A stretch of 64,000 nt of DNA, from NCBI GenBank assembly GCA_036269595.1, contig DATBEI010000059.1:1032-65031 (forward strand), given 5' to 3'. Source of the DNA: Candidatus Sulfotelmatobacter sp. (GTDB lineage Bacteria > Acidobacteriota > Terriglobia > Terriglobales > Acidobacteriaceae). The notes under the pieces are model-generated. The model searched no databases. It was not told where the DNA came from and was given only the letters and a program-made list of their open reading frames with translations. Made by a program: the position numbers and the translations under genes. Positions 8,912 to 33,768 of this stretch are shown here, piece by piece. Positions within the stretch are counted from its first letter, which is position 1, and each line of letters starts with the position of its first letter.

Positions 8912-8913
8912 GT

Positions 8914-13147: not shown

Positions 13148-13162
13148 TCACAGTCTCCCCTG

Positions 13163-14836: not shown

Positions 14837-14869
14837 CAGGCGATCTCCCCGTGGTTTTTAACGAGATGG

Positions 14870-16621: not shown

Positions 16622-17131
16622 CTATGCTGATTTTCGGGTTCTAGATTCCGACGAGATTGTGCGCTGTTTCTTACCGCGCCCGGAATCTTGGCCTTTCGAC
16701 GTTTCCATATTTTCAACACCCTCTTTAAATTCGGAAACCTCGACAATCTGCCAATTGCCCCCCTCGTTCCACGGGCCCCGGGCATCGGTCTCGCCTTCAT
16801 CGCCTTCTCCGGTCGAATCGTTGAAATACTGATCGACCAGCACGGGAGTCGGTGGAATCTGTCCAATTGAAAAAGGCGCCTTTCCGATACTCTCAAGAGC
16901 AGCGGTGAAAGCCTTCATGTGAGTAATCTCTCGCGTCATCAAAAACTGGAGCGCATCTTTCGATCCGGGATCGTCGCAAAAGTTGATTAAGCGCTCATAC
17001 ACAATCTTGGCGCGAGCCTCGGCGGCTATGTTGCTTCTCAGATCTATATCCAGTTCGCCGGTGATTTTGAGGTAGTCGGCCGTCCATGCGTCGCCCATCG
17101 AGTTGAACAAGCTGACGCCACCCCCACCGCC
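16622..17131 (-). pseudogene. Mn-catalase gene fragment lacking roughly the N-terminal 110-120 codons
   Basis: Encodes the Mn-catalase C-terminal half (DLRSNIAAEARAKIVYERL, FLMTREITHMKAF, RGPWNEGGNWQIV). Similarity continues upstream of the TTG as GGGGGVSLFNSMGDAW and is then cut by a stop at 17132-17134. The first metal-binding helix pair is absent and the next gene starts 36 nt away on the other strand. Confidence 0.65.
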
Positions 17132-17169
17132 TTATACACGCTTAGATGATTCGGAAAAGGAGATGCCAG

Positions 17170-17952
17170 ATGCAGTTCAGAATATTCTCACGTACATTCG
17201 TTACTTCCTTAGCATTCGTCGTCTGTGCATTTCCTTCCCTGGCACAGAATCCGCAGGATTGTTCGAAGATCCCGGACTACAACAAGCTCAAAGCGGCGTT
17301 AACGAGCGCTGTGAAAGAGGGCAAAGGGGCGAACGGGGGACTCGGGAATCAGGAATGGGGCGCGGTGGTGAATCGAGATGGCATCGTTTGCGCCGTTGTG
17401 TTTACGGGCCCGAATCGAGGAGCGGAATGGCCGGGAAGTCGCCTGATCTCCGCGGAAAAGGCGAATACAGCAAATGCTTTCAGCACCGACAATTTTGCTC
17501 TTTCCAGCGGCAACGTTTATTCCGCCGCGCAGCCTGGAAACTCTCTTTACAGCATCGTGAGCGGTCCAAACCCAACTTCTGCGTTTGCCGGTGATCCACA
17601 AAAGTTCGGTCAACCCGATGACCCGCTGGTGGGAAAGCCGGTTGGCGGAGTTATCGTTTTCGGCGGGGGACTAGCCCTGTACAATAAAAATGGAAAAATT
17701 GTCGAGGCTCTGGGAGTGAGTGGAGACACGTCCTGCGCCGACCACGTAATCGCCTGGAATACCCGGCAGGCCTTAGGGCTGAACGCCGTGCCGATGGGGG
17801 TCGCCCCGGGCCCGAGTGACAACCTCATCTTCGATATCCAGAATGGCGTGAGTAGTAGTGGCTTCGGACATCCAGCGTGCAAGGGCGGTAACCCGAGTGA
17901 AGGGATCATTAACAAGTTAAACCAAACCCACCCCACCGGTCCCCACCGCTAA
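17170..17952 (+). CDS. Secreted long-form GlcG/DUF336 (haem-degrading-like) domain protein, paralogue 1
   Basis: AAGGAG lies 8 nt upstream of ATG 17170. Signal peptide present. Blocks NRDGIVCAVVF, GSRLISAEKANTANAFS and GGVIVFGGGLALY...GVSGDTSCADH match the GlcG fold pattern. Confidence 0.7.
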   Translation: MQFRIFSRTFVTSLAFVVCAFPSLAQNPQDCSKIPDYNKLKAALTSAVKEGKGANGGLGNQEWGAVVNRDGIVCAVVFTGPNRGAEWPGSRLISAEKANTANAFSTDNFALSSGNVYSAAQPGNSLYSIVSGPNPTSAFAGDPQKFGQPDDPLVGKPVGGVIVFGGGLALYNKNGKIVEALGVSGDTSCADHVIAWNTRQALGLNAVPMGVAPGPSDNLIFDIQNGVSSSGFGHPACKGGNPSEGIINKLNQTHPTGPHR

Positions 17953-18731: not shown

Positions 18732-19529
18732 TCAACGTGCTTTCGGACCGGTGGGGTACTTTTTCGAAAGGTCCTTAACGAGTTCGTCTGGAGGATTGCC
18801 CCCTTTACACGTCGGGTGTCCAAAGCCGCTCGGGCTATTGTTGTTCGACCAGTCGAGAATCATGTTGTCGTTGTGATCTGGAGAGGGCCCCATGGGCACT
18901 GCGTCCAGCCGCAATTCATGGCGGACCTTCCACGCGATGATATGGTCTGCGCACGAAGTGTCACCGCTCAGACCGAGACCGCCGACGATTTTTCCCTTGG
19001 AGTCATAAAGGGGCAAGCCGCCCCCAAAGACGATCACTCCGCCAATCGGCTTTCCGACCATAGGGTCGTCGGGCGTGCCAAATGACGTTGCGAGCCCGAA
19101 CACAGCTTGAGCATTGGGAGGGGCGCTGGTCGTGAGACTGTAAAGACTCTGTCCGGGTTGTGCCGCCGCAAAAAGATTGGCAGTGGACAGCGCATAGTCC
19201 GAGGAACTGAGAGCATTTGCTGTATTGGCTTTTTCGGCGGCGATGGCACGACTGCCAGGCCACTGCTGCCCGCGATCGTTACCGCTGAACACGACTGCGC
19301 AGACAATGCCGTCGCGGTTGACCGTGACGGCCCATTCCTGATTTCCCAATCCGCTGTTGCCTGTCGCGCCTTCCTTGATCACAGACTGAAGTACGCTGCG
19401 CAATTTGGAATGATCGGGGAGTGCCGAGCAATCCGGTTTAGATTGCGCGATTCCCGGCAGAGGTAACAGCAACGCGGAGCAGGCAACTAGAATCGTCCGA
19501 AGTTTATGACAGTTGAGAGAAGTTAACAT
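18732..19529 (-). CDS. Secreted long-form GlcG/DUF336 domain protein, paralogue 2
   Basis: Roughly 60% identical by eye to the 17170-17952 product (NRDGIVCAVVFSG, GSRAIAAEKANTANALS, GGVIVFGGGLPLY, SGDTSCADHIIAW). I trimmed the ORF to ATG 19529, 13 nt after the coxII stop. Confidence 0.7.
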   Translation of the reverse strand: MLTSLNCHKLRTILVACSALLLPLPGIAQSKPDCSALPDHSKLRSVLQSVIKEGATGNSGLGNQEWAVTVNRDGIVCAVVFSGNDRGQQWPGSRAIAAEKANTANALSSSDYALSTANLFAAAQPGQSLYSLTTSAPPNAQAVFGLATSFGTPDDPMVGKPIGGVIVFGGGLPLYDSKGKIVGGLGLSGDTSCADHIIAWKVRHELRLDAVPMGPSPDHNDNMILDWSNNNSPSGFGHPTCKGGNPPDELVKDLSKKYPTGPKAR

Positions 19530-19542
19530 GTTGAACCTTTCT

Positions 19543-20547
19543 TCATCGAAGTTGTCGCAGGTAAGCAACCAGATCCCGCAACTGCTGACCGTTGAACTGC
19601 GTGAGGTTAGGCATCGCGGCCCCCGGTTTAAGGGACTGAGCGTGAGTGACCCAGGCCTCGAGGTATGCATCGTTATTCGGGTATGAGTTGGCCGCAATAT
19701 TGATGCGGCTAGCGATATGAGTCAGGTCGGGCGCCACCCGGCCTCCAGCCAGGGTTCCGCGAACCTGGTGACACATGGAACAGGGTCCGGCCATGAAAGT
19801 CTGCTCGCCGCGTCGAGCCTCCTCGGTGGTTGGTTCTGTGGCGGACTGTCTTTGGCCCTGAACCCACGCATCGTAATCGGAAGATTCTTGCGCAACCACC
19901 ACGAGCCTCATGTGCGCGTGCTGCGCGCCACAGTATTCGGCGCACGTCCCGGTGTAGATTCCTGGCTGGTCAGCTTCGATGCGGATGAAGTTCGGATGGT
20001 CCGGAATCAGATCCACCTTGCCATGCAAGGTCGGGACCCAAAAAGAATGGATGACATCCAGCGAACGCAATTCAATATCGACGGGTTGACCAACGGGGAT
20101 GTGGATTTCGTTTGCCGTAGTAAATCGCTGGGCGGGAGCACCGAGATACTGGACCTCCCACCACCACTGCCGGCCAATAATGGCGATCTCTGGATGCAAG
20201 TCATGATGATGAACATCGTGGACGGGAAAACTGGCCATCAATTTCAATCCAAGAATGAACAGAACACAAAGTACGCTTAGAGGGAAGGCGAGACCTCCCC
20301 ACGCAATCCAGCCTTGGCCGCCTCCCACATCGACCGGTTCGTGTTCTGCGAGGGTGCCCCGTCTGCGAGACATGGCCCAAGTAAGCAAAATCCACATGAC
20401 GATGCTGATCGCGAGAAACAGAATCAGCATCAGCCATGACAGGTGAGCGATCTTGTCGGCCGCTGGACCTTTGGGATAAAGCGTAGACTGAGACCGCTGG
20501 CAGCCCGAGAGTAGTAACAACATCGAAATGGACCAGAGGCGCTTCAT
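19543..20547 (-). CDS. Cytochrome c oxidase subunit II (second set) with fused C-terminal cytochrome c domain
   Basis: Lipobox LLLSGC, CuA site HSFWVPTLHGK ... CAEYCGAQHAHM, C-terminal CSMCH. Trimmed to ATG 20547. Confidence 0.9.
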   Translation of the reverse strand: MKRLWSISMLLLLSGCQRSQSTLYPKGPAADKIAHLSWLMLILFLAISIVMWILLTWAMSRRRGTLAEHEPVDVGGGQGWIAWGGLAFPLSVLCVLFILGLKLMASFPVHDVHHHDLHPEIAIIGRQWWWEVQYLGAPAQRFTTANEIHIPVGQPVDIELRSLDVIHSFWVPTLHGKVDLIPDHPNFIRIEADQPGIYTGTCAEYCGAQHAHMRLVVVAQESSDYDAWVQGQRQSATEPTTEEARRGEQTFMAGPCSMCHQVRGTLAGGRVAPDLTHIASRINIAANSYPNNDAYLEAWVTHAQSLKPGAAMPNLTQFNGQQLRDLVAYLRQLR

Positions 20548-20552
20548 CTTTT

Positions 20553-21074
20553 CTAGTCCTTCTGCGCTGAGTGGCCCGGGTGAGTGATCGCGGGTTGCGC
20601 CACTTCTTCGTGCTCGGGCATTCGCGGAGGTTCCGGTTCCTGCGCCGTCCTCATTGACTTGATGTAGGTAACTAATTTCCAAATTTGATCTTCTGGAATT
20701 TTGCTGCCCCACGAAGGCATTCCATGCCCGCGTCCTGCAGCAATCGAATCGAAGATTTGATCGTCGCGTTCCCCGAAAAGCCAGACTTGGTCACGCAGGC
20801 TGGGGCCCATCCCGCCGCCCGCGTGGCCACCGTGACAACCGGAGCAGTTGTACCAATTGAAAAGTTTTCGTCCTTCCTGCAGAGCAACCGGATCGTTGGC
20901 GAAGGGATTGCTGCGGAACTTGACGTTGCTCCCGGCGCCCGGGATCGGACCTACTGCGGTCGGCACAGGCGCGGGACTGCTCTCAGGGGCGGCAGGTGCC
21001 GAATATTCCTGGCATCCTCCGCCAGCCAGTAATAGCGACAATACAATCCCCGCAATAAGATCTTGTACTTGCAT
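20553..21074 (-). CDS. Monohaem c-type cytochrome lipoprotein (XoxG-like position)
   Basis: LLLAGGGC lipobox and an NCSGCHGGHAGGGMGP haem site. The start is ATG 21074 or GTG 21098. Confidence 0.8.
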   Translation of the reverse strand: MQVQDLIAGIVLSLLLAGGGCQEYSAPAAPESSPAPVPTAVGPIPGAGSNVKFRSNPFANDPVALQEGRKLFNWYNCSGCHGGHAGGGMGPSLRDQVWLFGERDDQIFDSIAAGRGHGMPSWGSKIPEDQIWKLVTYIKSMRTAQEPEPPRMPEHEEVAQPAITHPGHSAQKD

Positions 21075-21085
21075 GTTGGAGCACC

Positions 21086-21907
21086 TCATTTTTGGCACTG
21101 CCCCCCCTGAGCGCTCACCAAGGGCACGGAGTACGAGTCGAGCAGGTGCCGAATGTCGGAACGGTGGCGGGCTATGAAACTATTTAGCTTGTCGCGGAGC
21201 GCGTCATTGCCACGCCGCACTCCCATGGAGATATCGAACGAAAGTGGAATCTGCTGATCTAGAGGGGAAGGGCAGACCGGAGTAGCTTCCAAAGGGGCGG
21301 AAGAGCGGTTGGCAAAATAGCCACCCAAGGGTCCCCACACAACCGCAACATCAATTGTCTTGTCAGCAACGGCGCGCACGATATCGCCGGCCGGGTTCTG
21401 TTCCGAAAGCTTGCCAAAGATGTCGTACCCTTCAAGGTTTCCGACAAGACCTCGCTTCAGCAGAGCGGTTGTAGACGGCACACGATCGTCATTCTCTCCG
21501 GTCACATGAACTCCTATGCGGAGACTTTTGAGCTGCGGATCGTCGAAAGAACGAATATGCAGACCTCGATCGCGACGCGACACAAACACGTAGATCGAGC
21601 GGTAATAAGGGACCGTAGTGCTGGCTACGTCAATGCCAGTGGGAACTTCCATCACTACATCGCAAGCGCCCGCGAGTAGAGTGTTGCGAAAGAATTTGTG
21701 GCGCTGAGGGAACCAGAAATACGAAAGGCTCACGCCCAGGTCACGAGCGACCAATTGCGCCAGTTCGTTCTCAAAACCTTGTTGTTGTTGATTCGAGTAA
21801 GGCAGATTGTTGGGGTCGGCACAAACGCGCAGCTCCGCCGTGGCAGCGACCAGCGGTGCAGCACAGCAAAAGAAAAAGGCGAGCAGACTCTTAGTAGCCG
21901 AAGACAT
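21086..21907 (-). CDS. xoxJ: MoxJ/XoxJ-like periplasmic binding protein associated with quinoprotein dehydrogenases
   Basis: ELRVCADPNNLPYSNQQQQGFENELAQLVARDLG matches the N-terminal signature of the quinoprotein-dehydrogenase-associated SBP family. Overlaps the xoxF stop by 17 nt. Confidence 0.8.
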   Translation of the reverse strand: MSSATKSLLAFFFCCAAPLVAATAELRVCADPNNLPYSNQQQQGFENELAQLVARDLGVSLSYFWFPQRHKFFRNTLLAGACDVVMEVPTGIDVASTTVPYYRSIYVFVSRRDRGLHIRSFDDPQLKSLRIGVHVTGENDDRVPSTTALLKRGLVGNLEGYDIFGKLSEQNPAGDIVRAVADKTIDVAVVWGPLGGYFANRSSAPLEATPVCPSPLDQQIPLSFDISMGVRRGNDALRDKLNSFIARHRSDIRHLLDSYSVPLVSAQGGQCQK

Positions 21908-23702
21908 AGAGTGCGCCTCCGGGACTGGTCATCTGTTTAATCTTCTTCATGGCTCCTACCACGCCCAGGGCAGCGTAGTCGTCGTCGGTTGAAACACTGG
22001 GAAGCGCTACCGCTCCCATCCAGCCGCCGATGCCGACATAGATCGCGACGTACTGTTTACCGTCAGGACCGAGAAATGTCATGGGATTGCCGATGATGCC
22101 CGAGCTAAGTTTCATCTGCCACAAAACGTTTCCGCTGCGTGCGTCCAATGCTCGGAAGTAGCCGTCCATCGTCCCGTAAAAGACAACGTCTCCAGCAGTA
22201 GCAAGTACGCCGCTGTAAACAGGCAGGTCGGCCTCTTTGACGCTCCAGACCTTCTTGGCATTTGCGACGTCCCAGGCAATCAACTCGCCCTGGTATCCAC
22301 CGGGACCGGGATACATACGAACACTGGCACCTAGGTAAGGAGTGCCTGCGATGTAATTCACGTCTTCCCCTGAATAATCCATGCACGTGTTGTGCGCAGG
22401 GATATAGAGATAGCCGGTCTTCGGCGAGAAGGACGACGGCACAAACTCTTTACCGCCGGTCGAGGAAGGACAGACCCCTCGGGCGTAGTGATTGGTGTGG
22501 GGACGCTTATCCGGATTCTCGATCGGAAGACCAGTTTTCAGGTCGTAGCCTTTTGCCCACGTAACCGGTTCGAAGTTTTCAGCCGAGAGCACCTCACCGG
22601 TTTCGCGATCGAGCACGAATACGAAGCCGGTGCGACCGGGATGGATGAGCAGTTTTCGAGTCTTGCCTTGCCAAGGCATGTCGACGAGAACGTTCTCCAT
22701 AATCTCGTCGTAGTCCCAGCCATCGTGAGGCTCAATTTGGTAAGCCCATTTCGCGTCACCGGTTTCAGGATTGCGCGCCCAGATAGTAATCGACCATTTG
22801 TTGTCGCCGGGACGCATGTCATCGTTCCAGACGCCGGGATTACCCGTTCCGTAATAGATGAGATTGAGTTCCGGATCGTAGGAAATCCAGCCCCAGATCG
22901 TCCCGCCGCCCAAGCGCCACTGGTCTGGAGTCCACGACGTCACGCCGAGGTCTTTGCCGCGATCTTTCTGATAAAAGGGCTTAAAGTCAGGACCGATGCG
23001 AGCGTCGCTGTCAGGACCACTATTGAAGGCACGCCACAGAATTTTGCCCGACTTAAGATCAAGCGCGGTCAGTTTGCCCCGCACTCCCAACTCTGCGCCA
23101 CTGTCTCCCACTAGAACGACATCCTTGACGACGATGGGAGCCATCGTGATGGTTTCACCTAGGTCGGTATCTCCGACTTTGGTTTTCCACACGAGTTGAC
23201 CGGACTTGGCGTCGACCGCGACCGTATTTGCGTCGAGGGTGTTGTAAATGATTTTTCCATCGGCGTAGCTGGCGCCACGGTTCACCACATCACAACACGC
23301 GATGCCCACTGATCGTTGATCGGGATTCGGTTCGAACTTCCATTTCATCGGATAGCCGGGCTTAGTCAAATCGAGCGCGATCAGGTAATTGGGGAACGGC
23401 GTGACCATATATAAAGTGTTGTCCACAACAAGCGGCCCACCCTCATGGCCGTGGGGGATCCCGTCCGCCATCTCGCCAACTATGTGGAGATTCTTGACGT
23501 TGCCGGTATTGATTTGGGAGAGAGGACTGAAGCGAGTGTTCGCGTAGTCGCCCGCGGGCATTGTCCATTCCCCTGTCGGCAGCGGGCTGACCAGGTGGAT
23601 GCCAGCCTGCGATCCCGGAACTTCAGTCGGACTGGGCGCATTTTGCCCTATCAGCGGGATCACCATACAGAGAATGAAAAGAAAACCGTTAACAATACGC
23701 AT
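21891..23702 (-). CDS. xoxF: PQQ-dependent methanol/ethanol-family dehydrogenase, XoxF-type (lanthanide signature)
   Basis: Signal peptide, vicinal Cys pair (GIACCDVV), SGAELGVRG, WGWISYDPELN, and the WDYDE motif. The DYD codons are gac tac gac at 22707-22715. Confidence 0.9.
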   Translation of the reverse strand: MRIVNGFLFILCMVIPLIGQNAPSPTEVPGSQAGIHLVSPLPTGEWTMPAGDYANTRFSPLSQINTGNVKNLHIVGEMADGIPHGHEGGPLVVDNTLYMVTPFPNYLIALDLTKPGYPMKWKFEPNPDQRSVGIACCDVVNRGASYADGKIIYNTLDANTVAVDAKSGQLVWKTKVGDTDLGETITMAPIVVKDVVLVGDSGAELGVRGKLTALDLKSGKILWRAFNSGPDSDARIGPDFKPFYQKDRGKDLGVTSWTPDQWRLGGGTIWGWISYDPELNLIYYGTGNPGVWNDDMRPGDNKWSITIWARNPETGDAKWAYQIEPHDGWDYDEIMENVLVDMPWQGKTRKLLIHPGRTGFVFVLDRETGEVLSAENFEPVTWAKGYDLKTGLPIENPDKRPHTNHYARGVCPSSTGGKEFVPSSFSPKTGYLYIPAHNTCMDYSGEDVNYIAGTPYLGASVRMYPGPGGYQGELIAWDVANAKKVWSVKEADLPVYSGVLATAGDVVFYGTMDGYFRALDARSGNVLWQMKLSSGIIGNPMTFLGPDGKQYVAIYVGIGGWMGAVALPSVSTDDDYAALGVVGAMKKIKQMTSPGGALYVFGY

Positions 23703-23720: not shown

Positions 23721-24101
23721 CTAGCGCAGCGTGTATAAATACGCGGCTGCGTCCCTTGCCTGTTTGTTGCTCAAGCCCAACTTCGGCATGGCTGTTCCCG
23801 CTTCCACCGCGGGCGGATTCTCGATCCAATGAATGAGATTGTCGGGAGTATTCGGCAACTCTCCGGCAATCATGGTGCGTCGACTAAAGAAATACAGCGG
23901 CGGTCCGACTACCCCGTTTGCCGCATGAATTCCCGGGATCGTGTGGCACGCGCCGCAACCGTAGGACTCGATTACTTTGCGTCCCTCTCGCGCATCGCCC
24001 CCAGTCGCGACGCTGTAAGGGGACGGCATCCTGCCGCCTGTGCAGGCCGTTAGTAGCAGAACCTGTAAGCCGCAGATGGTCGCCATCAGGCCTGACTTCA
24101 T
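23721..24101 (-). CDS. Small monohaem c-type cytochrome lipoprotein
   Basis: LLLTAC lipobox, CGACH site, distal Met region GTAMPK. 4-nt overlap with the upstream gene. Confidence 0.8.
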   Translation of the reverse strand: MKSGLMATICGLQVLLLTACTGGRMPSPYSVATGGDAREGRKVIESYGCGACHTIPGIHAANGVVGPPLYFFSRRTMIAGELPNTPDNLIHWIENPPAVEAGTAMPKLGLSNKQARDAAAYLYTLR

Positions 24102-24508
24102 CTTGCCCTCACACAGAGATCGATAATGAGCAGGGGCAGACCGAGCCAGATAATCCCAATTCCCAGGGTGGCGCTGATGAAAACGCCTGCCAGCGCCATA
24201 TATTCTTGGCGGCCACGCCCTTCGGCGTTAGAAAGGTCTCTTTCGCGCGAGAGTTCGCGCCAATTGCGAAATGAGATTGCGCCGGCCACTACCGCCGTAA
24301 TCAGGAGAGCAAGAGTAAATATCAAGTAGATGATGCGGAAGCCGGGTTCAATATGGGCCCCGCCGTATTGCTCTTTTCCCAAACATGCCTGCCAAGTAAT
24401 CAGAAGGTCGATAATTCCCAGCGCGATCCACGACGCGGCTGATCCGGCAAAGCCGAACCAGAGACGTCCGGGAGAGATACGTTGGCGGGTGTTGATCTGA
24501 TCGTTCAT
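24098..24508 (-). CDS. Small membrane protein (about 4 TM), possible oxidase accessory/subunit-IV-like
   Basis: 136-aa hydrophobic ORF wedged between subunit III and the cytochrome c gene. No motif recognised. Confidence 0.5.
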   Translation of the reverse strand: MNDQINTRQRISPGRLWFGFAGSAASWIALGIIDLLITWQACLGKEQYGGAHIEPGFRIIYLIFTLALLITAVVAGAISFRNWRELSRERDLSNAEGRGRQEYMALAGVFISATLGIGIIWLGLPLLIIDLCVRAR

Positions 24509-24512
24509 GCTT

Positions 24513-25106
24513 TTAAAAATGCGGTCCTACATAGAGGATCGCGACTACAAAAATCCAGACAACATCGACGAAGTGCCAGTACATCGCAGCGACGTGATAT
24601 GGGCGATAGGGCGATTCGGCGACTGGCGCGTAACGCGGCAGAATCAGCACATAGATCAAAATCAAAAGACCTACGATCACGTGGGCCGCATGAAAACTGG
24701 TGATGGTATAGAAAATCGACCCGTAAGAATCGGTGTACGGGGTTAAGCGCTCCCAATGCTCGCGGTAATCAAATGCCGACAGAGTCAAGAAACCAAGTCC
24801 AATCACGATGGTGAGTGCCAAGGCAATTCGCGCAGATAGATACCTTTCCTTCTTCAGTTGCCGCTCTCCCCAATGCAGCACCAGGCTGCTAACAAGGAGC
24901 ACTGCGAGCATGGGCAGGGCGAAGTGCAACTTCGGCAACTCCTCAATTCTCCATCGATCCTTGTTGCTGCCCAGCATGAAATAACTGACAAATAGCGCGA
25001 GAAAGAGAAACGCCTCCGTCAGAATCGTCAGCATCATCCCGTAGGAGCCGCGCTCGGCTTCCAGTGGAAGAATCAGTCGGCGTGTGGGAACGGCCACCGT
25101 GCTCAT
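24513..25106 (-). CDS. Cytochrome c oxidase subunit III (second set)
   Basis: 197 aa, C-terminal HVAAMYWHFVDVVWIFVV motif. ATGA overlap with subunit I (25103-25106). Confidence 0.9.
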   Translation of the reverse strand: MSTVAVPTRRLILPLEAERGSYGMMLTILTEAFLFLALFVSYFMLGSNKDRWRIEELPKLHFALPMLAVLLVSSLVLHWGERQLKKERYLSARIALALTIVIGLGFLTLSAFDYREHWERLTPYTDSYGSIFYTITSFHAAHVIVGLLILIYVLILPRYAPVAESPYRPYHVAAMYWHFVDVVWIFVVAILYVGPHF

Positions 25107-27010
25107 GCAAATTCTCCCTCTGGTTCAGCCTCGCTCGGTGGAGTCGGTTTCGGCCACAGCCAGTAGTAAGCGGTAAACAAAATGGCCAATACTCCGGCCA
25201 GCGCTACCCACATCCATTGAAAGACAAGTGCGATGAATAACAGCATCAGCGACAACGCGTTGAGTAATGGTGCAATCGTGTCCTCCGGCATCTTCATGAT
25301 CGACTGCGGCTCGGCGTCCAGCCATGAACTGGAAAGGGTCAGCCGGCCCTCATCGAGGACGCGTTCGTTGTTTGGGTCATACTCTTCGTCATGGTCATCC
25401 CAGAGCGGATGGCGCGAGCGGACGGTTGGAATATGGACGGTTGCGTAGGGCGCGGGCGGAGAATCCGTTTCCCATTCCAGTGAATCCGCGTTCCATGGAT
25501 TCTTGCCTGCAATCTTTCCCGTACGGAGGCTTTGAAAGAAGTTAACGATGCTGAGCAAAATACCGGTGCCGAAGATGAATGCGCCGACGGTCGCGGTCAT
25601 ATTCAGCCCATCCAGTCCTAACCCAGCGGGATACGTATAGATGCGGCGCGGCATGCCCCCTAATCCCGCGAGATGCATGGGAAAGAAGGCCAAGTTGAAA
25701 CCCACGAACATGATCCAGAAGCTCCATTTGCCGAGTTGCTCGCTCAACATTCGTCCGGTCATTTTAGGAAGCCAATAATAGAGAGCTGCAAAAACGGGAA
25801 ACACGTTCGCCCCGATCAGCACGTAATGGAGGTGAGCTACCACGAAATAGGTATCGTGCACCTGCCAATCGACCGGAATAATTGCCGTGAAAATTCCGTT
25901 CAGCCCGCCGATCACCAGCAGAGCTATGAATCCCGCCGCGAAGTGCATAGCAGCTGTGGCAACCGGCCGGCCCTTCCAGATGGTAGCAATCCAGCAAAAC
26001 ACTTGTACCGCGCTGAAAATGGAAATGGTCATGCTGCCGGCACTGAAAAAACTCATGGCCATGTCAGTCATTCCAACGGCAAACATGTGGTGAAACCAGA
26101 CCCCAAAACCAACGACACCGGTCAAAACGGTCGAGATGGCGACATAGGGATAGCCCACAATCGGCCGCCGCGAGAACACTGGAATGATCATCGATGCCAT
26201 TCCGGTCGCAGGCAGGAAAATCACATATACCCACGGGTGGCCAAAAAACCAGAACAACTGTTGCCACAGCAACGCGTCCCCACCCCAGCGCGCGTCGAAG
26301 AAGTGAGTGCCCCAGCGCCGGTCCAGTTCGAGGAAGACGCAATCCGCGGTCAATGCAGGCAGTGACATCAGGATCGCGAAGGAGATCGTCAGAGTGCTGT
26401 ATAGGAACAGCGGCATGCGGCTGATCGTCATGCCGGGAGCACGCAGGCGAAAGATGGACACTATGAAATTTATCGCCCCAACAGTTGTTGAGATCGTGAG
26501 GAAAATAAGCGCAAGGGCATAAAAATCCATGCCGTAACCCGGGGAATAGCGAAGATTGGTGTAGGGCACGTAGGCAAACCAGCCACCGTGTGGCGATTGC
26601 CCCATAAAAGCACTGACGTACAACAGGATGCCGGAAAGCAGGAAAGTCCAATAGGAAAATGCGTTCAATCGAGGAAACGCCATGTCCCGTGCGCCGATCA
26701 TCAACGGGATCAAATAATTTGCGAAGCCGGAGAGGATGGGCGAGGCATACCAGAAAATCATGGTCATGCCATGCATCGTGAAAAGCTGGTTGTACGCTTC
26801 GGGCGTTAACCACGACTGATCGGAGCGCGCTAGCTGGATGCGCATGATCAGAGCCTCGACGCCGCCAATGATGAGAAAGATGAAAGCGGTGGCGAGGTAG
26901 CGATGCCCGATTTCCTTGTGGTCGACAGTGGAGAGCCATCCGTAGAGAGTCTTCGGCGTTTCCCAGATTTCTCGCAGCCGCTCCTGAACAGCGGGATTGC
27001 TGACGCTCAT
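25103..27010 (-). CDS. Haem-copper oxidase subunit I (second set), divergent, with a C-terminal 2-TM extension
   Basis: GARDMAFPRLN, FFGHPWVYVIFLP, WFHHMF, VVAHLHYV. Trimmed to ATG 27010 (MSVSNPAVQERL...), giving 635 aa. The extra C-terminal helices are LLNALSLMLLFIALVF and VALAGVLAILFTAYYWL. Confidence 0.9.
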   Translation of the reverse strand: MSVSNPAVQERLREIWETPKTLYGWLSTVDHKEIGHRYLATAFIFLIIGGVEALIMRIQLARSDQSWLTPEAYNQLFTMHGMTMIFWYASPILSGFANYLIPLMIGARDMAFPRLNAFSYWTFLLSGILLYVSAFMGQSPHGGWFAYVPYTNLRYSPGYGMDFYALALIFLTISTTVGAINFIVSIFRLRAPGMTISRMPLFLYSTLTISFAILMSLPALTADCVFLELDRRWGTHFFDARWGGDALLWQQLFWFFGHPWVYVIFLPATGMASMIIPVFSRRPIVGYPYVAISTVLTGVVGFGVWFHHMFAVGMTDMAMSFFSAGSMTISIFSAVQVFCWIATIWKGRPVATAAMHFAAGFIALLVIGGLNGIFTAIIPVDWQVHDTYFVVAHLHYVLIGANVFPVFAALYYWLPKMTGRMLSEQLGKWSFWIMFVGFNLAFFPMHLAGLGGMPRRIYTYPAGLGLDGLNMTATVGAFIFGTGILLSIVNFFQSLRTGKIAGKNPWNADSLEWETDSPPAPYATVHIPTVRSRHPLWDDHDEEYDPNNERVLDEGRLTLSSSWLDAEPQSIMKMPEDTIAPLLNALSLMLLFIALVFQWMWVALAGVLAILFTAYYWLWPKPTPPSEAEPEGEFA

Positions 27011-27487: not shown

Positions 27488-28045
27488 TTGACCAGATTCG
27501 CGAGGATATCTCCAGCGCTCAAGAAGCGCGCCAGCCGCATTCGCGTTCTACTGATGGACGTGGACGGCACTATGACAGATGGAAGTGTTACCTTGCTCTC
27601 GCAAATGGATGGAAGCGCGCTTGAGATAAAAACATTTGATGCGCATGACGGTCAGGGGCTTACCTTGGCGCGAACGGCGGGGCTTCGCACTGGATGCATT
27701 ACTGGACGCGAGAGTGCGGCTCTGGCTCGACGGGCCTTAGAAATGAAGATGGAGTTCGTTTATATGAGGCAACCCCTGAAGGTGCCGGCCTACGAAGACA
27801 TCCTCAGAAAGGCGGAAGCTTCCGACTATGAGGTGGCATTCGTGGGAGACGATCTGCCGGACATTCCGTTGATGAAGCGCGCCGGGCTTGCGGTCGCGGT
27901 TGGAGATGCTATGCCAGAGGTAAAAGAAGTCGCGCACTACACCACAAAGGCTCTCGCCGGACACGGAGCAATTCGAGAGGCCGTGGAACTCATTCTACGA
28001 TCCAAAGGCATCTGGGCCGAGATGATCGACAAGGCGCGGGCCTAA
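27488..28045 (+). CDS. kdsC: 3-deoxy-D-manno-octulosonate 8-phosphate phosphatase (HAD-IIIA)
   Basis: LLMDVDGTMTDG, FDAHDGQGL and FVGDDLPDIPLM motifs. ~185 aa, TTG start. Confidence 0.85.
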   Translation: MTRFARISPALKKRASRIRVLLMDVDGTMTDGSVTLLSQMDGSALEIKTFDAHDGQGLTLARTAGLRTGCITGRESAALARRALEMKMEFVYMRQPLKVPAYEDILRKAEASDYEVAFVGDDLPDIPLMKRAGLAVAVGDAMPEVKEVAHYTTKALAGHGAIREAVELILRSKGIWAEMIDKARA

Positions 28046-28126: not shown

Positions 28127-29368
28127 TTATTCGTGGCGGAGAGCTTCGATCGGGTCGAGGCGCGCGGCACGGAAGGCGGGAATCATACCGCTGATCAGTC
28201 CCACAGCACCCAGAATGAGAGTGGACGCGATCAGAGTGCCTGGAGCGATAATCAGGCGGATGTCCCCGGCTTCGCCATTTTTCGCGAAGGCGCTGTACAA
28301 GGTGAGCCTGCCTACGGAAAGCGCGACCGCGTAAGCCAGGATTACTCCTAACACTCCGCCGATAAAAGTAATGGTGAGCGCCTCAGCTAAGAACTGTAGC
28401 AAAATGTATCGACGGGGCGCGCCTAGAGCCTTCTGGACACCGATCTCGCGGGTGCGTTGCGTGACCGAGACCAGCATGATATTCATCAAGCCCACGCCGC
28501 CAATGCCGAGCGTGAGCGTGCCGATGAAACCCATCAGAACTTTCAAGCCAAGTGTGATGATTTCAAACTGGTGCACTTGCGTCATCAGGTTGAAAACTTC
28601 CACAGCCTGACGATCGGTTTGGCTGAACTTGTGCTGCGTGCTCAGGACAGTACGGACGGTTTGTTCCAAGCTCTCGTACTCGGGCGTCTGGTAGGTGAAC
28701 CAAATCGTATCGAGATAATGCGTGTTCTTCAGTTCGCTCATTGTGCTGAAGGGAACGTAGACCACACGGTTGATATCGTCATTGCCCTCCTGCATTTTGG
28801 CGCTCAGAACGCCGATGACTTCAAAGCTGAGACCATCGAGTCGAATGTGTTCGCCCAAGGCGTTGCGTCCTGAGAAAAGCTTTTCTTTGGCCTCTGAACC
28901 GATTACCGCAACGTGGGCGCGCTGGATTTCGTCTTCGGGATTGTAGAAGCGGCCCTGCTCGAGTTGGAGCGAGCGAACATCGAACACGTTGGGATAATTT
29001 CCGGTAACCGCCCAAGTGAAGAGCCTTGTGTCGTACTGGACGCTGCACTGCTTGCTGACTTCAGGCGTGATGCGCGAGATTTGCGGAAGGTTGGTGGTGA
29101 GAGTATCGACGTCGTCCAGCGTGAAGCGGACGAGCACACCGGCCTTCTGTCCGCCGGCCTGCATGGATGTACGGCCCGGAACTACGATAACGAGCTTGCT
29201 TCCGAAGTTCGCAAAGATGTTGGCGCAGGCCCGGCCAAAACCATCGCCGTAGGCGAGCAGCATCACAACCGTCGCGATTCCCCAAGCCATCCCCAGCATG
29301 GTGAGGGCAGTGCGGCGGCGATTGTGCCGCATGGCGCCGTAAGCTTCCTGCAGGAGATCGTGAAACAT
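28127..29368 (-). CDS. MacB-like ABC transporter permease (FtsX plus periplasmic core domain), no fused ATPase
   Basis: N-terminal TM (RRRTALTMLGMAWGIATVV), ~220-aa periplasmic domain, C-terminal 3-TM FtsX module with TQRTREIGVQKALGA. Confidence 0.85.
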   Translation of the reverse strand: MFHDLLQEAYGAMRHNRRRTALTMLGMAWGIATVVMLLAYGDGFGRACANIFANFGSKLVIVVPGRTSMQAGGQKAGVLVRFTLDDVDTLTTNLPQISRITPEVSKQCSVQYDTRLFTWAVTGNYPNVFDVRSLQLEQGRFYNPEDEIQRAHVAVIGSEAKEKLFSGRNALGEHIRLDGLSFEVIGVLSAKMQEGNDDINRVVYVPFSTMSELKNTHYLDTIWFTYQTPEYESLEQTVRTVLSTQHKFSQTDRQAVEVFNLMTQVHQFEIITLGLKVLMGFIGTLTLGIGGVGLMNIMLVSVTQRTREIGVQKALGAPRRYILLQFLAEALTITFIGGVLGVILAYAVALSVGRLTLYSAFAKNGEAGDIRLIIAPGTLIASTLILGAVGLISGMIPAFRAARLDPIEALRHE

Positions 29369-29374
29369 CTCAGG

Positions 29375-30622
29375 TCACTCCTGCCGGAGGGCTTCCACCG
29401 GTTGTAATAATGCGGCTTTGCGCGCCGGATAAAGTCCCGCGAAAACTCCGGCTAAGGTGAGGCTGCCGATCGCTAGTACGGCAGACATGGGCACAAGTTT
29501 TGGTGGATCGAAACCGCCCGGCCCCTGCACGTTCCCCATCATCGCCATCAATCCCGTGGCCAAGCCCATGCCAATCAAGCCGCTGGTCAGTGTCAGCAGC
29601 AAGCCTTCCAAAAAAAAGTGAAACAGAATGCTGCGGTTGGTCGCGCCCAGGGCTTTTCGCAGTCCGATCTCGCGCGTGCGTTCGCTGACGGCCACCAGCA
29701 TGATGTTGACCACGCCGATCGCGCCCAGGGCTAGCGTTACCATCCCGACCGCCCCCAGAAACATATTCATCACATCGAAAATCGTTCCTACCATTTTTGA
29801 TTCCTGGATGGAATCCCAGCCGTCAAAGGCAGTTTCGTCGTTGGCATTGAATCCGTGATTCCGGGCGATAATCTTGTGGACGTCATTCTGGGCCAACTTA
29901 TGCTCGGCGGTTGTGAACGGCTGGTATTCAATAAACGAAATGGAATTCTGGTGGTTTTCTCCTTTCAATGGAAAGTTGGTGGCCATCACCGTAAAAGGGA
30001 TGTAGCCTCTCATATTGAGCCAGGTGTTATCGCCGCGCCCAAGGTGAGGCATGCTGCCGATCACTTCGAAGCGAATGCCGTTGAGCAGGACGAAAGCTCC
30101 CACCGCCGGGCGGCCAGGAAATAAAGTTTTGAGTAATTCGTTTCCGAGAACGATTACGTTGCGGCTTTGCGTCTCGTCCATTTCATTCAGCCAGCGGCCT
30201 TCTTTGAGCGGAAGAAAGCTAATCTCATTCAGTTGCGGCTCCGCGCCTAGAATTTCGACTCCAGCAGTGGCGAATTCGCTGATCTGGTGCAGATCGGTTC
30301 GAGAAAGTATGGGACACGCAACGCCCACGTGGGCGGCTTGCGTGCGGATGTCGATGTAATCCTGATAGGTGAGCAAATACGGGCGAGCAGAATTCATGCT
30401 TCCTTGGACGGCGGGCGCACGCCCAGGAAAAATGAACATGATATTCCGGCCAAACTCGGCCAGTTCGCGCTTGTTGCCCGAGCGGAAGCCTTCCCCTATG
30501 CCGACCAAGAGAAGCAAGGATCCGACGCCCCACGCGATTCCGAACATGGTCAAAAACGAGCGCAGCTTATGTGCCCAGAGGTTGCGGAAGATCTGCGCGA
30601 AAATATCGAAAACCGTGCGCAT
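29375..30622 (-). CDS. MacB-like ABC transporter permease (FtsX plus periplasmic core domain), paralogue
   Basis: Same architecture (HKLRSFLTMFGIAWGVGSLL ... SERTREIGLRKALGA). 6 nt upstream of the second permease. Confidence 0.85.
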   Translation of the reverse strand: MRTVFDIFAQIFRNLWAHKLRSFLTMFGIAWGVGSLLLLVGIGEGFRSGNKRELAEFGRNIMFIFPGRAPAVQGSMNSARPYLLTYQDYIDIRTQAAHVGVACPILSRTDLHQISEFATAGVEILGAEPQLNEISFLPLKEGRWLNEMDETQSRNVIVLGNELLKTLFPGRPAVGAFVLLNGIRFEVIGSMPHLGRGDNTWLNMRGYIPFTVMATNFPLKGENHQNSISFIEYQPFTTAEHKLAQNDVHKIIARNHGFNANDETAFDGWDSIQESKMVGTIFDVMNMFLGAVGMVTLALGAIGVVNIMLVAVSERTREIGLRKALGATNRSILFHFFLEGLLLTLTSGLIGMGLATGLMAMMGNVQGPGGFDPPKLVPMSAVLAIGSLTLAGVFAGLYPARKAALLQPVEALRQE

Positions 30623-30684
30623 GATGGGTACTAATTGTACCCCGTCGGCGCCTCAAACGCTGGTCCTGATGTGTTAGAGCGACT

Positions 30685-33600
30685 TCAGGCGATGGCCTCT
30701 TCGGGTTCGCTGAAGACGCCCTCGGAATCGGTGCTTTGTGCATGCACCGGCACTCGAGTCTTAGCCACAAGCATGTAGATGGACGGCACAACGAACAAAG
30801 TGAAGGCCGTGCCAATGATCATGCCGCTCACCAGCATGATGCCAATGCTGTTTCGCGCTCCGGCCCCCGGTCCCTTAGCCAATACCAGAGGGAAGTGACC
30901 GATCACGGTTGCAGCCGTTGTCATCAGGATAGGGCGCAGTCTTGTGCCCGCGGCTTCAATGATCGCGGCTAGTTTGGCGGCACCGCGCTCCTGCAGTTCA
31001 TTGGCAAACTCCACAATCAAGATGCCGTTCTTTGATACCAGACCGACCAGAGTGATCAGGCCCACCTGGCTATAGATGTTCAATGTCGTCAGGCCGAGGA
31101 ACGAGAATAATAGGGCTCCCGAAATCGCCAGCGGCACCGACCCGGCCAGAATGATAAACGGATCGCGGAAGCTCTCGAACTGCGCCGCCAGCACAAGATA
31201 AATCAGGATTCCAGACAGCAGGAATGTCCCGAGAAACTTGCTGCCCTCAACCCGAAGTTGTCGCGACTCGCCGGCGTAATCAACCGTGAAGCCCTGCGGA
31301 AGAATTGTCTTAGCCTCGTCTTCGAGCATGCGCAATGCCTTGTCCAACGGAACGCCTGGCGGTATCACGCCTTGAATGCGCACCGCGTTGAGCTGCTGAA
31401 ATTTCTTCAGATCGCGCGGTTCGGTCGTGGTGCGCAGGCTGGCAAACGTCGACAGCGGCACAAGCTTGTTCTGCGATCCCGTGATGTAGATCTGCGATAG
31501 TTGTTCCGGAGTCAATCGCTCCGCGCGCTTGACCTGCGGAATGACCTTGTAACTGCGTCCCTGAATGCTGAAGCGGTTGACATAGTTTCCGCCGAGCAGC
31601 GTGGAAAGATCCTGTCCCGCCTGGCTGAGATCGACGCCTTGCGAACGAAGCTTGTCGCGATCGAAAACCACTTCGGTCTGCGGCTGGTCGAACTTCAGGT
31701 CCGAGTCGGCATAGATGAACAGGCCGCTGGTCATGGCTTTGCCCACAAGTTGCTTGGCGAATTCGACAAGCTGTTGCGGTTCAGCAGGCGAGGCGATTAC
31801 GAAGTCAACGGGAAAATTCCCGCCGCCGGGCAATGGAGGCGGGGTCAATGGGATCACCCGGATGCCTGCAATTCTCGACAGCGGCGCAGTGGACTCCAAC
31901 AGAAGCTGTTGCGCCGTCTTTTTCCGCTCGCTCCAGGGCTTGGTCACCATGCCTCCGAAACCGCCCGTCGGCGAGGTGATTTGAAAGATGCTCTGGCTTT
32001 CTGGAAACGAATGGTAAACGTCGTACACTTGCTGCGTGTACAGGTTCGTTTGATCGATAGTTGAGTTAGGAGACGCCTGGATCACTCCAAACACCACTCC
32101 CTGATCTTCAGCCGGCGCCAGTTCCCGCTGCGAAAACATGTAGAACGGAACGACCAGCAGAACCACGATCGCCCACAACGTGAGAACGACCGGCCGGTAC
32201 TGGAGGATTCCGGCAAGTTGCCGCGAGTACCACCGGCGCACGCTTTCGAAGTGGCGATTCACCATGCCGGCGAATCCGTGCTCTGTCGCTCCTGCGCGCA
32301 GCAACTTCGATCCCATCATCGGAGACAACGTCAGCGCAACGATTCCTGAAACAATGACGGCTCCGGCGAGGGTGAATGCAAATTCACGGAACAACGCGCC
32401 CGTCAGGCCGCCCTGAATTCCGATCGGCGCATACACGGCGGCGAGAGTGATCGTCATGGAGATGATCGGGCCGACCAACTCGCGGGCAGCATCGATCGCA
32501 GCCTGAAGCGGAGTGCTTCCCATGTGGATGTGACGCTCCACGTTTTCGACCATGACAATCGCGTCATCCACCACGAGTCCAACCGAAAGCACGATCGCGA
32601 GCAGGGTCAGCAAGTTGATGGTGAAGCCCGCGATCAGCATGATGAAAACCGCGCCGATAAGAGAAATCGGAATCGCAACTACCGGAATCAGCACGGAGCG
32701 GAAGGATCCCAGGAAGAGAAAGATCACGACGACGACGATCAAAAGCGTTTCCGTAAGAGTGCTGAGTACCTCGTTGATCGCGTCTTGAATGTACGCCGTC
32801 GAGTCATATGGAATCCCAACCTTCATTCCCGCCGGAAGTTGGGCCTGAATGCCAGGAATCGTTTCGCGCACGCTCTTAATCACTTCCAGCGAGTTAGACG
32901 TCGGAAGAACCCAGACTCCCATGAAGGTTGCGCCTTCGCCGTTGAAACGGACCTCCGAGTCGTAGTCCTGAGCGCCGAGTTGAACGTCGGCAATTTCGCC
33001 TAACCGGACGACGACGCCTTTGTCCTGCTTGACCACGAGTTGGCGGAATTCGTCCGCGGTAGTCAGGTTTGTGTTGGCGACCAGGTTCACCGAAACCATC
33101 GAACCCTTGGTGCTCCCAAGCGCGGAAAGGTAATTGTTTTTCGCCAACGCATCGTGAACCGCGGAGGGGGAGATACCCAGAGCGGCCATCCTGTCGGGCT
33201 TCAGCCAGATTCGCATCGCGAAGGTACGATCGCCAAGGATGTCGGCGCGCTGCACTCCGCTGATGGCGCTCAGTTTGGGCTGGACCACGCGGGTGAGGTA
33301 ATCCGTGATCTGGTTCTGATCGAGATCGCTGGAGGAGAAGCCAAGGTACATGGCGGCGAATTCGTTATCCGCCGTTTCCAAATCAATGACAGGCGCTTGC
33401 GCGTCGGGCGGCAGGTCGTTGCGCACTTGCGCCACCTTCGCCTGAATTTGCGTCAGCGCCGCGTTGGTGTCGTAGTTCAGCTTCAGGTGCACGGTGATTG
33501 TGCTAAGTCCCTGGGCGCTCGACGATTCCATGTAGTCGATGCCGTCCGCGCTGGCAATCACCCGCTCCAGTGGCGTGGTGATGAATCCGCGAACCAGGTC

Positions 33601-33768
33601 GGCATTGGCCCCGACGTAGGTTGTGGAAACCTGGACCACCGCGATGTCGCTGCGCGGATACTGTCGCACGCTCAGCGAGCGTATTGCCTGCAACCCTGCG
33701 ATCAGGATGACAAGGTTGACGACGATCGCGAGGACCGGCCTTTTGATAAACAGGTCAGTGAATTTCAT
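30685..33768 (-). CDS. Multidrug-type RND efflux permease (AcrB/MexB-like)
   Basis: 1027 aa. MKFTDLFIKRPVLAIVVNLVILIAG N-terminus, VGLVVDDAIVMVENVERH, 12-TM pattern. Its start abuts the adaptor stop. Confidence 0.93.
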   Translation of the reverse strand: MKFTDLFIKRPVLAIVVNLVILIAGLQAIRSLSVRQYPRSDIAVVQVSTTYVGANADLVRGFITTPLERVIASADGIDYMESSSAQGLSTITVHLKLNYDTNAALTQIQAKVAQVRNDLPPDAQAPVIDLETADNEFAAMYLGFSSSDLDQNQITDYLTRVVQPKLSAISGVQRADILGDRTFAMRIWLKPDRMAALGISPSAVHDALAKNNYLSALGSTKGSMVSVNLVANTNLTTADEFRQLVVKQDKGVVVRLGEIADVQLGAQDYDSEVRFNGEGATFMGVWVLPTSNSLEVIKSVRETIPGIQAQLPAGMKVGIPYDSTAYIQDAINEVLSTLTETLLIVVVVIFLFLGSFRSVLIPVVAIPISLIGAVFIMLIAGFTINLLTLLAIVLSVGLVVDDAIVMVENVERHIHMGSTPLQAAIDAARELVGPIISMTITLAAVYAPIGIQGGLTGALFREFAFTLAGAVIVSGIVALTLSPMMGSKLLRAGATEHGFAGMVNRHFESVRRWYSRQLAGILQYRPVVLTLWAIVVLLVVPFYMFSQRELAPAEDQGVVFGVIQASPNSTIDQTNLYTQQVYDVYHSFPESQSIFQITSPTGGFGGMVTKPWSERKKTAQQLLLESTAPLSRIAGIRVIPLTPPPLPGGGNFPVDFVIASPAEPQQLVEFAKQLVGKAMTSGLFIYADSDLKFDQPQTEVVFDRDKLRSQGVDLSQAGQDLSTLLGGNYVNRFSIQGRSYKVIPQVKRAERLTPEQLSQIYITGSQNKLVPLSTFASLRTTTEPRDLKKFQQLNAVRIQGVIPPGVPLDKALRMLEDEAKTILPQGFTVDYAGESRQLRVEGSKFLGTFLLSGILIYLVLAAQFESFRDPFIILAGSVPLAISGALLFSFLGLTTLNIYSQVGLITLVGLVSKNGILIVEFANELQERGAAKLAAIIEAAGTRLRPILMTTAATVIGHFPLVLAKGPGAGARNSIGIMLVSGMIIGTAFTLFVVPSIYMLVAKTRVPVHAQSTDSEGVFSEPEEAIA

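Follow-up and report, generated by a model that had tools for sequence, protein, structure and literature searches.

Nearly all mechanistic models of the A-type cytochrome oxidases are built on Glu286 and Lys362, and laboratory mutants at either position are essentially dead. In Paracoccus denitrificans the D-channel is defined by E278 and the K-channel by K354, T351, S291 and Y280, and the A2 enzymes show that the Glu can be functionally replaced by another residue (PMC3084760). As to gene context, XoxF3 is co-localised with CoxI/II/III, XoxG and XoxJ in Acidobacteria, Gemmatimonadetes and Verrucomicrobia (Voutsinos et al. 2024, PMC10875860). Here we describe the second oxidase subunit I gene of a stretch of 64,000 nucleotides from Candidatus Sulfotelmatobacter sp. 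(contig DATBEI010000059.1, positions 1,032 to 65,031; this whole stretch is called the window). It encodes subunit I of an A-family haem-copper O2 reductase in which Trp stands at the position of the D-channel Glu and Gln at that of the K-channel Lys. The Trp is fixed in a large lineage, and the gene belongs to an operon with a XoxF-type alcohol dehydrogenase.

The gene is read from the minus strand, with its ATG at 27008-27010 and its stop codon at 25103-25105, which gives 635 residues; the open reading frame (ORF) extends in frame to 27244, but the homologues are about 625 amino acids long and start at the same ATG. The protein matches PF00115 with E=2e-149 (498 bits), and its score of 689 bits against TIGR02891 (CtaD_CoxA, cut-off 670.75) passes the whole-protein threshold of the A family. 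Subunit I was compared by phmmer with all PDB chains, including CtaD of Mycobacterium tuberculosis and M. smegmatis and QoxB of Bacillus subtilis. Residues 21-540 were aligned, gapless around both channel motifs, and the closest solved chains are the two mycobacterial ones (8hcr_F and 6adq_F), with about 42% identity. In these alignments 'lfwffghpWvyvif' stands over 'lfwffghpEvyiia' and 'ifsavQvfcw' over 'vptgiKffnw'. The R. sphaeroides numbers used in this text (E286, K362 and so on) were placed on subunit I through the motifs. The AlphaFold model has a predicted template-modelling score (pTM) of 0.86, and its top fold matches are caa3 (2yev_A), bo3 and aa3-600.

A first-pass annotation of this DNA, made from the letters alone, had read Trp and Gln at the two channel positions, and both codons are exactly where it had placed them. 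It had also described the other subunit I of the window (13163-14836) as carrying A1 motifs, and that gene does read GHPEVY and TGIKIF, as a normal A1 enzyme. The Tyr-Ser pair that the A2 enzymes use is indeed missing ahead of HP, where the protein reads W-F-F-G-H-P-W; all 120 close homologues have F/W followed by G/A before HP. A shift of the Glu and the Lys by one turn of the helix is excluded by the gapless alignment and by helices VI and VIII, which hold no Glu, Asp or Lys within two turns.

The metal centres are complete. The six His of the low-spin haem, the high-spin haem and CuB (H80, H258, H307, H308, H393 and H395) are present here and in all 79 relatives used for residue counts, and so is Tyr262 of H-P-x-V-Y, the predicted cross-link Tyr. 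The Arg pair R455 and R456 and the entry motif GARDMAFPRLN are also present, so that the earlier statement that the CuB and haem ligands and the entry Asp are kept holds in alignment with solved structures. As read from these residues, the O2 chemistry is canonical, with all ligands and the cross-link Tyr in place. This is a truly non-canonical A-family subunit I: the A1 Glu, the A2 Tyr-Ser and the K-channel Lys are all missing, while its metal ligands are intact.

The distribution of these states was followed in a scan with one genome per species, which gave 588 relatives; residue counts were taken from the 79 best loci (80 sequences with the window protein). Trp occupies the D-channel Glu position in 79 of the 79, and the K-channel Lys position holds Gln in 71 and Thr in eight. 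In the database, HPWVY is found in 120 of the 120 best homologues (70-90% identity) and, with the sister clade described below, in 239 of 239. Only 91 of 509 core columns (18%) are invariant across the 80 sequences, and because the Trp is fixed in all relatives against this background, the substitutions are not chance. The Trp state is thus fixed in a large lineage and is not a sign of decay. Strong purifying selection acts on an active site of the O2-reductase kind, to which CuA and haem c supply the electrons. A decaying paralogue or a misalignment can practically be dismissed, considering the gapless alignment, the conserved operon, the hundreds of species-level homologues that are 62-92% identical and retain all ligands, and the GC content of the gene, which equals that of the window.

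Acidobacteriota are the majority of hosts in the 79-locus set, and the others include Verrucomicrobiae, Vicinamibacterales, Polyangia, Steroidobacteraceae, a metagenome-assembled genome of Burkholderiales, and, from culture, Modicisalibacter luteus DSM 23508 and Edaphobacter sp. HDX4, both of the Trp/Gln type with the complete XoxF operon. Overall, Trp-type homologues occur in Acidobacteriota, Gemmatimonadota, Verrucomicrobiota, Myxococcota, Steroidobacteraceae and cultured Burkholderia/Paraburkholderia. An exhaustive search with 50%-identity representatives revealed a sister group, about 55% identical, in which subunits I and III are fused into proteins of 830-876 amino acids; its hosts are Gemmatimonadaceae, Longimicrobiaceae and cultured Paraburkholderia, Caballeronia and Burkholderia multivorans. 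HPWVY is present in 119 of the 119 sampled members of this group, and the Lys position holds mostly Ala, otherwise Ser, Gly or Val. The Trp lineage is monophyletic in a neighbour-joining (NJ) tree, with 92% bootstrap after removal of the two diagnostic columns, and it nests, with 83% NJ support, in a clade of subunits I of about 840 amino acids that keep the Glu and have Gln for Lys (Pseudomonas mendocina, Stutzerimonas, Aromatoleum aromaticum EbN1, Halomonas, Legionella and Azotobacter). According to the NJ trees, it is likely that Lys was changed to Gln first and Glu to Trp later. The outgroup, with its Glu and Gln, is a second non-canonical A-type group. Its members (P0128, L084 and L085) have Glu where R. 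sphaeroides has G198 and N207, their D-channel entrance shows weak conservation, and their operon consists of CoxII, CoxI, a small ORF and Caa3_CtaG.

The branch is a genuine, conserved departure from the canonical form of a known enzyme, and its gene cluster has been published. No published description of its channel peculiarity, or of a Trp-type A-family oxidase, was found in the searchable literature, and absence there is not proof.

The alignments indicate that no ionisable relay residue is left in the D- and K-channels. Besides the change of Glu286 to Trp and of Lys362 to Gln or Thr, the entry Glu for the K-channel in subunit II is missing; the column in which the A1 subunit II of the window has this Glu ('VELAWT') is not acidic. 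The non-canonical case is therefore stronger than that made at first pass, since this Glu is absent too and the state is fixed across a large lineage. Further positions are altered as well. The Mg ligands are relaxed (H411 is kept in 61 of 79 loci and D412 in 38), and the bovine H-pathway His (R. sphaeroides H456) is replaced by Ser in 74.

Other parts of the proton paths are kept. The D-channel entrance residues Asp109, Asn116, Asn181 and Tyr38 (R. sphaeroides D132, N139, N207 and Y33; P. denitrificans Asp124, Asn131, Asn199 and Tyr35) are invariant in the 79 loci, and from the A1/A2 D-channel set Ser119 and Thr175 are conservative at the positions of P. denitrificans Ser134 and Ser193. At the top of the D-channel, the helix IV motif L-T-I-S-T-T offers four hydroxyls (Thr172, Ser174, Thr175 and Thr176); position 176 (R. 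sphaeroides I202) is Thr in 72 loci and Glu or Asp in four loci of the Bryobacteraceae/Solibacteraceae type. The K-path is always hydrogen-bonding, with Ser/Thr333, Gln/Thr336 and Ser273 (S299) in 79 of 79 and Thr269 (F295) in 77, and Tyr262 and Ser326 are invariant across the 80 sequences. Invariant and lineage-specific are Glu52, Thr83, Thr208, Thr294, Thr297 and Asn402, among which Glu52, Thr83 and Asn402 are specific to the entire Trp lineage. Tyr88 and Ser90 of helix II (Ser90 at the position of R. sphaeroides I112) were considered as a moved relay and set aside as weak, since Ser90 is present in 38 of 79 loci and Tyr88 is found also in the Glu-bearing mycobacterial CtaD; the literature search on I112E/E286 relocation mutants brought no usable result.

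The extra pair of C-terminal helices that the first-pass annotation had pointed out is real, but it is not special. In the AlphaFold model the helices are predicted at residues 580-596 and 600-618, and the extension aligns to transmembrane helices (TM) 13-14 of B. subtilis QoxB (QoxB 555-620) and has counterparts in T. thermophilus caa3 and E. coli bo3; such helices are common to bo3, aa3-600 and I+III fusions. In the related loci L077, L078 and L080 and in both neighbouring clades the extension runs on into subunit III. The PF00510 match of the separate subunit III, a protein conserved in 74 loci, covers model positions 77-254 alone, that is, the last five helices. Because the helices are fused to subunit III in relatives, the extension is the usual split-or-fusion variant of this branch.

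The main context of the gene, absent from the earlier note, is an operon with a pyrroloquinoline quinone (PQQ) dehydrogenase of the XoxF type (table 1). Subunit I heads this tightly packed minus-strand operon, in which it is followed by subunit III, a 136-aa protein, a lipoprotein cytochrome c, the PQQ dehydrogenase, the XoxJ-like and XoxG-like proteins and, as the last oxidase gene, subunit II. The best PDB match of the dehydrogenase is 4mae_A (XoxF of M. fumariolicum SolV; E=5e-190), and the XoxF hallmarks are found: WDYDE stands over WDYDG of 4mae_A, with the extra Asp (D-Y-D), and the vicinal Cys-Cys of 'accd' is aligned. The XoxF3-clade label rests on PMC10875860. Subunit II, the start codon of which is uncertain (the ORF reaches 20712), keeps every CuA ligand, and its H...CxExCGxxHxxM and CxxCH are conserved in 70 loci. 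Among the 69 related loci with enough downstream DNA, the PQQ dehydrogenase lies inside the oxidase operon in 58, together with XoxJ- and XoxG-like genes, and the order is kept across phyla. A sister locus from Gemmatimonadaceae carries a PQQ dehydrogenase, a cytochrome c, CoxII and a Trp-type CoxI+III; a dehydrogenase neighbour was found at none of the Glu-containing outgroup loci.

Table 1. Features of the oxidase locus (positions in the window).
Feature	Position	Strand	Evidence or remark
Subunit I, A-family haem-copper O2 reductase, 'HPWVY' lineage, 635 aa	25103..27010	-	PF00115, TIGR02891, PDB alignment, AlphaFold
Trp260 codon TGG, D-channel Glu position (R. sphaeroides E286, P. denitrificans E278)	26231..26233	-	PDB alignment
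Gln336 codon CAA, K-channel Lys position (R. sphaeroides K362, P. denitrificans K354)	26003..26005	-	PDB alignment
Glu52 codon GAG, helix I, lineage-specific invariant carboxylate, E. coli CyoB Asp75 position	26855..26857	-	
Gln75 codon, ahead of helix II, E. coli bo3 Gln101 position	26786..26788	-	
C-terminal extension of subunit I, about residues 545-635, two extra transmembrane helices	25106..25378	-	Model helices, QoxB alignment
Five-helix subunit III, 197 aa, start overlaps subunit I stop	24513..25106	-	PF00510 E=1e-20
136-aa membrane protein, two conserved Cys, no Pfam/NCBIfam match	24098..24508	-	In 64 loci
Monohaem cytochrome c, predicted lipoprotein (conserved Cys, CxxCH, TAMP)	23721..24101	-	
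XoxF-type (lanthanide-type) PQQ methanol/alcohol dehydrogenase	21891..23702	-	TIGR03075 628 bits
XoxJ/MoxJ-like periplasmic binding protein	21086..21907	-	TIGR03871 287 bits (cut-off 212)
XoxG/MoxG-like monohaem cytochrome c	20553..21098	-	PF13442; weak TIGR03872, TIGR04494
Subunit II, complete CuA and C-terminal haem c domain	19543..20550	-	TIGR02866 155 bits (cut-off 147.7)
HbpS-like/GlcG protein	18732..19535	-	PF03928; after operon in 39/80 loci

The reading that we favour, with a probability of about 0.55, is that the enzyme would be a cytochrome c:O2 oxidoreductase of an ancient A-family branch, which serves as the dedicated oxidase of a periplasmic alcohol-oxidation module and has remodelled, uncharged proton paths, with pumping reduced or lost. 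Electrons would pass from the alcohol through the lanthanide (Ln)/PQQ dehydrogenase (XoxF-like), the XoxG-like cytochrome c and the lipoprotein cytochrome c to haem c and CuA of subunit II, and then through the low-spin haem to the high-spin haem/CuB site and O2. What remains of the K-path would be an uncharged, hydrogen-bonding chain of Tyr262, Ser/Thr333, Gln/Thr336, Thr269 and Ser273, like the Lys-less B-type channel, and the lower D-channel would still comprise Asp109, Asn116, Asn181, Tyr38 and Ser174 and end at the Thr-rich turn of helix IV. Given the invariance of the D-channel mouth and of the lower K-path, proton uptake from the cytoplasm would continue; the protons for the chemistry would then arrive along paths lined by water and hydroxyls, and the enzyme would, with moderate confidence, be electrogenic. 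Pumping is probably lower or nil, because the Trp fills the cavity where the Glu feeds the pump site and the ligands of the Mg/water cluster are relaxed. The result could be a trade-off similar to that of the B family, with less or no pumping.

Several observations weigh against this reading. A D-channel entrance that is so strictly conserved could just as well indicate continued pumping. At the position of Asn98 (R. sphaeroides N121, P. denitrificans Asn113), 33 of the 79 loci have Asn, 26 have Val and 20 have Ile, and this loss of Asn from 58% of the clade speaks against a D-channel in full working order. In the sister Trp clade (Gemmatimonadota and Burkholderia) the 295 position is Met or Ile and the Lys position mostly Ala; therefore a polar K-path is not a general solution for all Trp-type enzymes. 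Finally, the link to XoxF is not obligatory, as nine loci hold the oxidase genes alone.

The conserved D-channel entrance also bears on a fully coupled proton pump with a relocated relay, in which Thr172, Ser174, Thr175 and Thr176 of helix IV would take over from the Glu or, by an alternative and H-pathway-like route, protons would follow a polar stripe at the low-spin haem (Arg37, Thr41, Glu52, Thr83 and Asn402). Such a pump would explain why Asp109, Asn116, Asn181 and Tyr38 are invariant though the Glu is lost, and it is in line with the Glu or Asp at position 176 in four species, with the invariance of the lineage-specific Glu52, Thr83 and Asn402 and with the A2 precedent for a functional replacement of the Glu (PMC3084760). 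A Thr, however, is unable to store a proton as a Glu does, and Glu52 stands at the lipid-facing Asp75 position of the bo3 quinol site and may not face the interior; the missing H-pathway His and the relaxed Mg site, which belongs to the exit and water cluster, also count against such a pump, and we consider the relocated relay unlikely. The loss of ionisable residues from both cytoplasmic channels can also be read in the opposite way, as an oxidase that is not electrogenic and draws its substrate protons from the periplasm, like the cytochrome c-dependent nitric oxide reductases (cNOR), and that serves fast periplasmic alcohol oxidation as an electron sink, with no energy conserved. The Trp at His+2 of H-P-W-V-Y is the state of the nitric oxide reductases (NORs), and polar residues specific to the clade are found in the periplasmic loops (His141, Glu228, Gln251, Asp509 and His526). 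Yet the invariant cytoplasmic D-channel entrance and Ser273 of the lower K-path are hard to explain if they are unused, and a sole coupling site that conserves no energy would be odd for a module present in six phyla, which makes this reading improbable. A chance well short of even is left for an enzyme that couples O2 reduction to proton translocation without Glu286, Lys362, subunit II Glu101 and His456, by means of a relocated relay, or that is, conversely, cNOR-like and non-electrogenic.

A different substrate or role, which the first-pass annotation had suggested as altered substrate chemistry, is not supported by the comparison. The NOR-like Trp could point to nitric oxide (NO) reduction, and Glu52 and Gln75, which match two of the four quinol-site residues of bo3, could point to a quinol-linked activity, as could the quinol-oxidase-like arrangement of TM13-14 on subunit I with a five-helix subunit III. 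Against NO reduction, the enzyme has the full O2-reductase signature (three CuB His and the cross-link Tyr, with CuA and haem c in subunit II), the Glu ligands of the NORs are absent and their second motif is not found. The equivalents of bo3 Arg71, Asp75, His98 and Gln101 are Ile48, Glu52, Ala72 and Gln75, so that Arg71 and His98 have no counterpart. The QoxB and CyoB models (TIGR02882 and TIGR02843) give subunit I scores at about half their cut-offs, and a quinol oxidase is ruled out by the complete CuA site. This explanation as a whole is very improbable. Glu52 and Gln75 stand at the CyoB Asp75 and Gln101 positions despite the full CuA/haem c subunit II.

The significance of the lineage lies both in mechanism and in ecology. 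Trp at the site of Glu286 and Gln, Thr or Ala at that of Lys362 are naturally fixed in hundreds of soil species, so the lineage provides a natural test of whether an A-type scaffold can work, and even pump, without these residues, which bears on the gating role of the Glu; Burkholderia and Paraburkholderia, both in the lineage, are culturable and genetically tractable. A relocated relay or a non-electrogenic enzyme, if either proved true, would bear on the dispute between D-pathway and H-pathway (PMC12901375). The oxidase is the sole coupling site of the XoxF3 module, which dominates the genes for lanthanide-dependent methanol and alcohol oxidation in Acidobacteria and Gemmatimonadetes, and therefore its coupling ratio sets the energy yield of that oxidation. 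It may also bear on the respiration of nanomolar O2 by acidobacteria that have just 'low-affinity' A-type oxidases (PMC8407424).

The 136-aa protein encoded between subunit III and the lipoprotein cytochrome c has a conserved Asp in its first helix; it is probably the 'small hypothetical' of PMC10875860 and may be an additional oxidase subunit or a copper-handling factor. Burkholderia multivorans (L081, GCA_019040505.1), a cultured bacterium from a group of pathogens, has an HPWVY oxidase in which subunits I and III are fused and the Lys position holds Ala. After this gene come a 133-aa ORF and a multihaem cytochrome c of 544 amino acids, and genes for a GMC oxidoreductase and gluconate-2-dehydrogenase subunit 3 are adjacent. 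Elsewhere in the window, a second HbpS-like/GlcG (PF03928) paralogue is encoded at 17146-17952 (+), and a 162-aa ORF at 16622-17110 (-) matches just positions 121-247 of the 284-position Mn-catalase model and could be the product of truncation or of a frameshift. A complete bc1-A1 caa3 'superoperon' occupies 7946-15919 (-); it comprises CoxII with haem c, the canonical CoxI (GHPEVY/TGIKIF), CoxIII, a 297-aa membrane protein without a family match, a dihaem cytochrome c, Rieske protein, cytochrome b fused to a cytochrome c domain and Caa3_CtaG, an arrangement that agrees with the acidobacterial one in PMC8407424. Upstream of the oxidase operon and on the same strand, 28127-34896 (-) encodes two adjacent MacB/FtsX-type permease paralogues, an AcrB-type resistance-nodulation-division (RND) transporter and an HlyD-type membrane-fusion protein, with a HAD-family hydrolase gene at 27488-28045 (+) in between.

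In its gene content the operon corresponds to the XoxF3 clusters of PMC10875860, which contain XoxF, XoxG, XoxJ, CoxI, CoxII, CoxIII, a cytochrome c and a small hypothetical protein. That study treats the Cox genes as those of an ordinary cytochrome oxidase and mentions neither channel residues nor a separate oxidase lineage. With the A1 aa3/caa3 enzymes of P. denitrificans and R. sphaeroides the protein shares the 12-helix core, the six His, the cross-link Tyr, the Arg pair, the Asp/Asn/Asn/Tyr of the D-channel entrance and a CuA subunit II. Those enzymes, however, keep Glu286, Lys362, the subunit II Glu, Pro358 and His277 (R. sphaeroides numbering), where Trp, Gln, no such residue, Phe and Gln are found here, and the Asn121 position is variable and the Mg ligands are relaxed in the Trp lineage. 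The A2 caa3 enzymes of Thermus thermophilus (2yev) and Rhodothermus marinus also have no helix VI Glu and carry haem c on subunit II, and 2yev is the best fold match of subunit I, extra helices included; they have exchanged the Glu for Tyr-Ser one turn earlier and retain the Lys, whereas the present protein reads F-G-H-P-W and has Gln for Lys.

The bo3 and aa3-600 quinol oxidases have in common with this oxidase the TM13-14 on subunit I, the five-helix subunit III, an acidic residue at CyoB Asp75 and Gln at Gln101, but they retain the Glu and the Lys and have lost CuA, which is intact here together with haem c. The ba3 enzymes of the B type likewise have no D-channel Glu and a Lys-less K-path of Thr, Ser and Tyr, with Ser at the Thr351 position; eight of the 79 relatives have Thr for the Lys, which by the definition in PMC3084760 is the B-type state. 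The B-family pattern is nevertheless not found as a whole. By sequence the protein belongs with the A family, it has the D-channel entrance, which does not vary among the relatives, and the three K positions are Gln/Thr, Ser/Thr and Ser, the last of these being Ser and not Tyr at the Ser291 position. With the cNORs and the quinol-dependent NORs (qNOR) the protein shares Trp at His+2 and the lack of ionisable D- and K-channel residues; all solved cNOR/qNOR chains read H-L-W-V-E at the Trp260 site (3o0r_B 207-211). The NOR motifs are H-X-(Arom)-X-E and H-H-X-(Arom)-(Arom)-X17-E, without Tyr-I (PMC3084760). Neither describes subunit I, in which His+4 is Tyr instead of Glu and HHMFA departs from the second motif; the NORs have Glu where subunit I keeps the cross-link Tyr, further Glu ligands and no CuA. 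As far as the aligned residues tell, H-P-W-V-Y is the NOR residue at His+2 combined with the oxidase Tyr at His+4.

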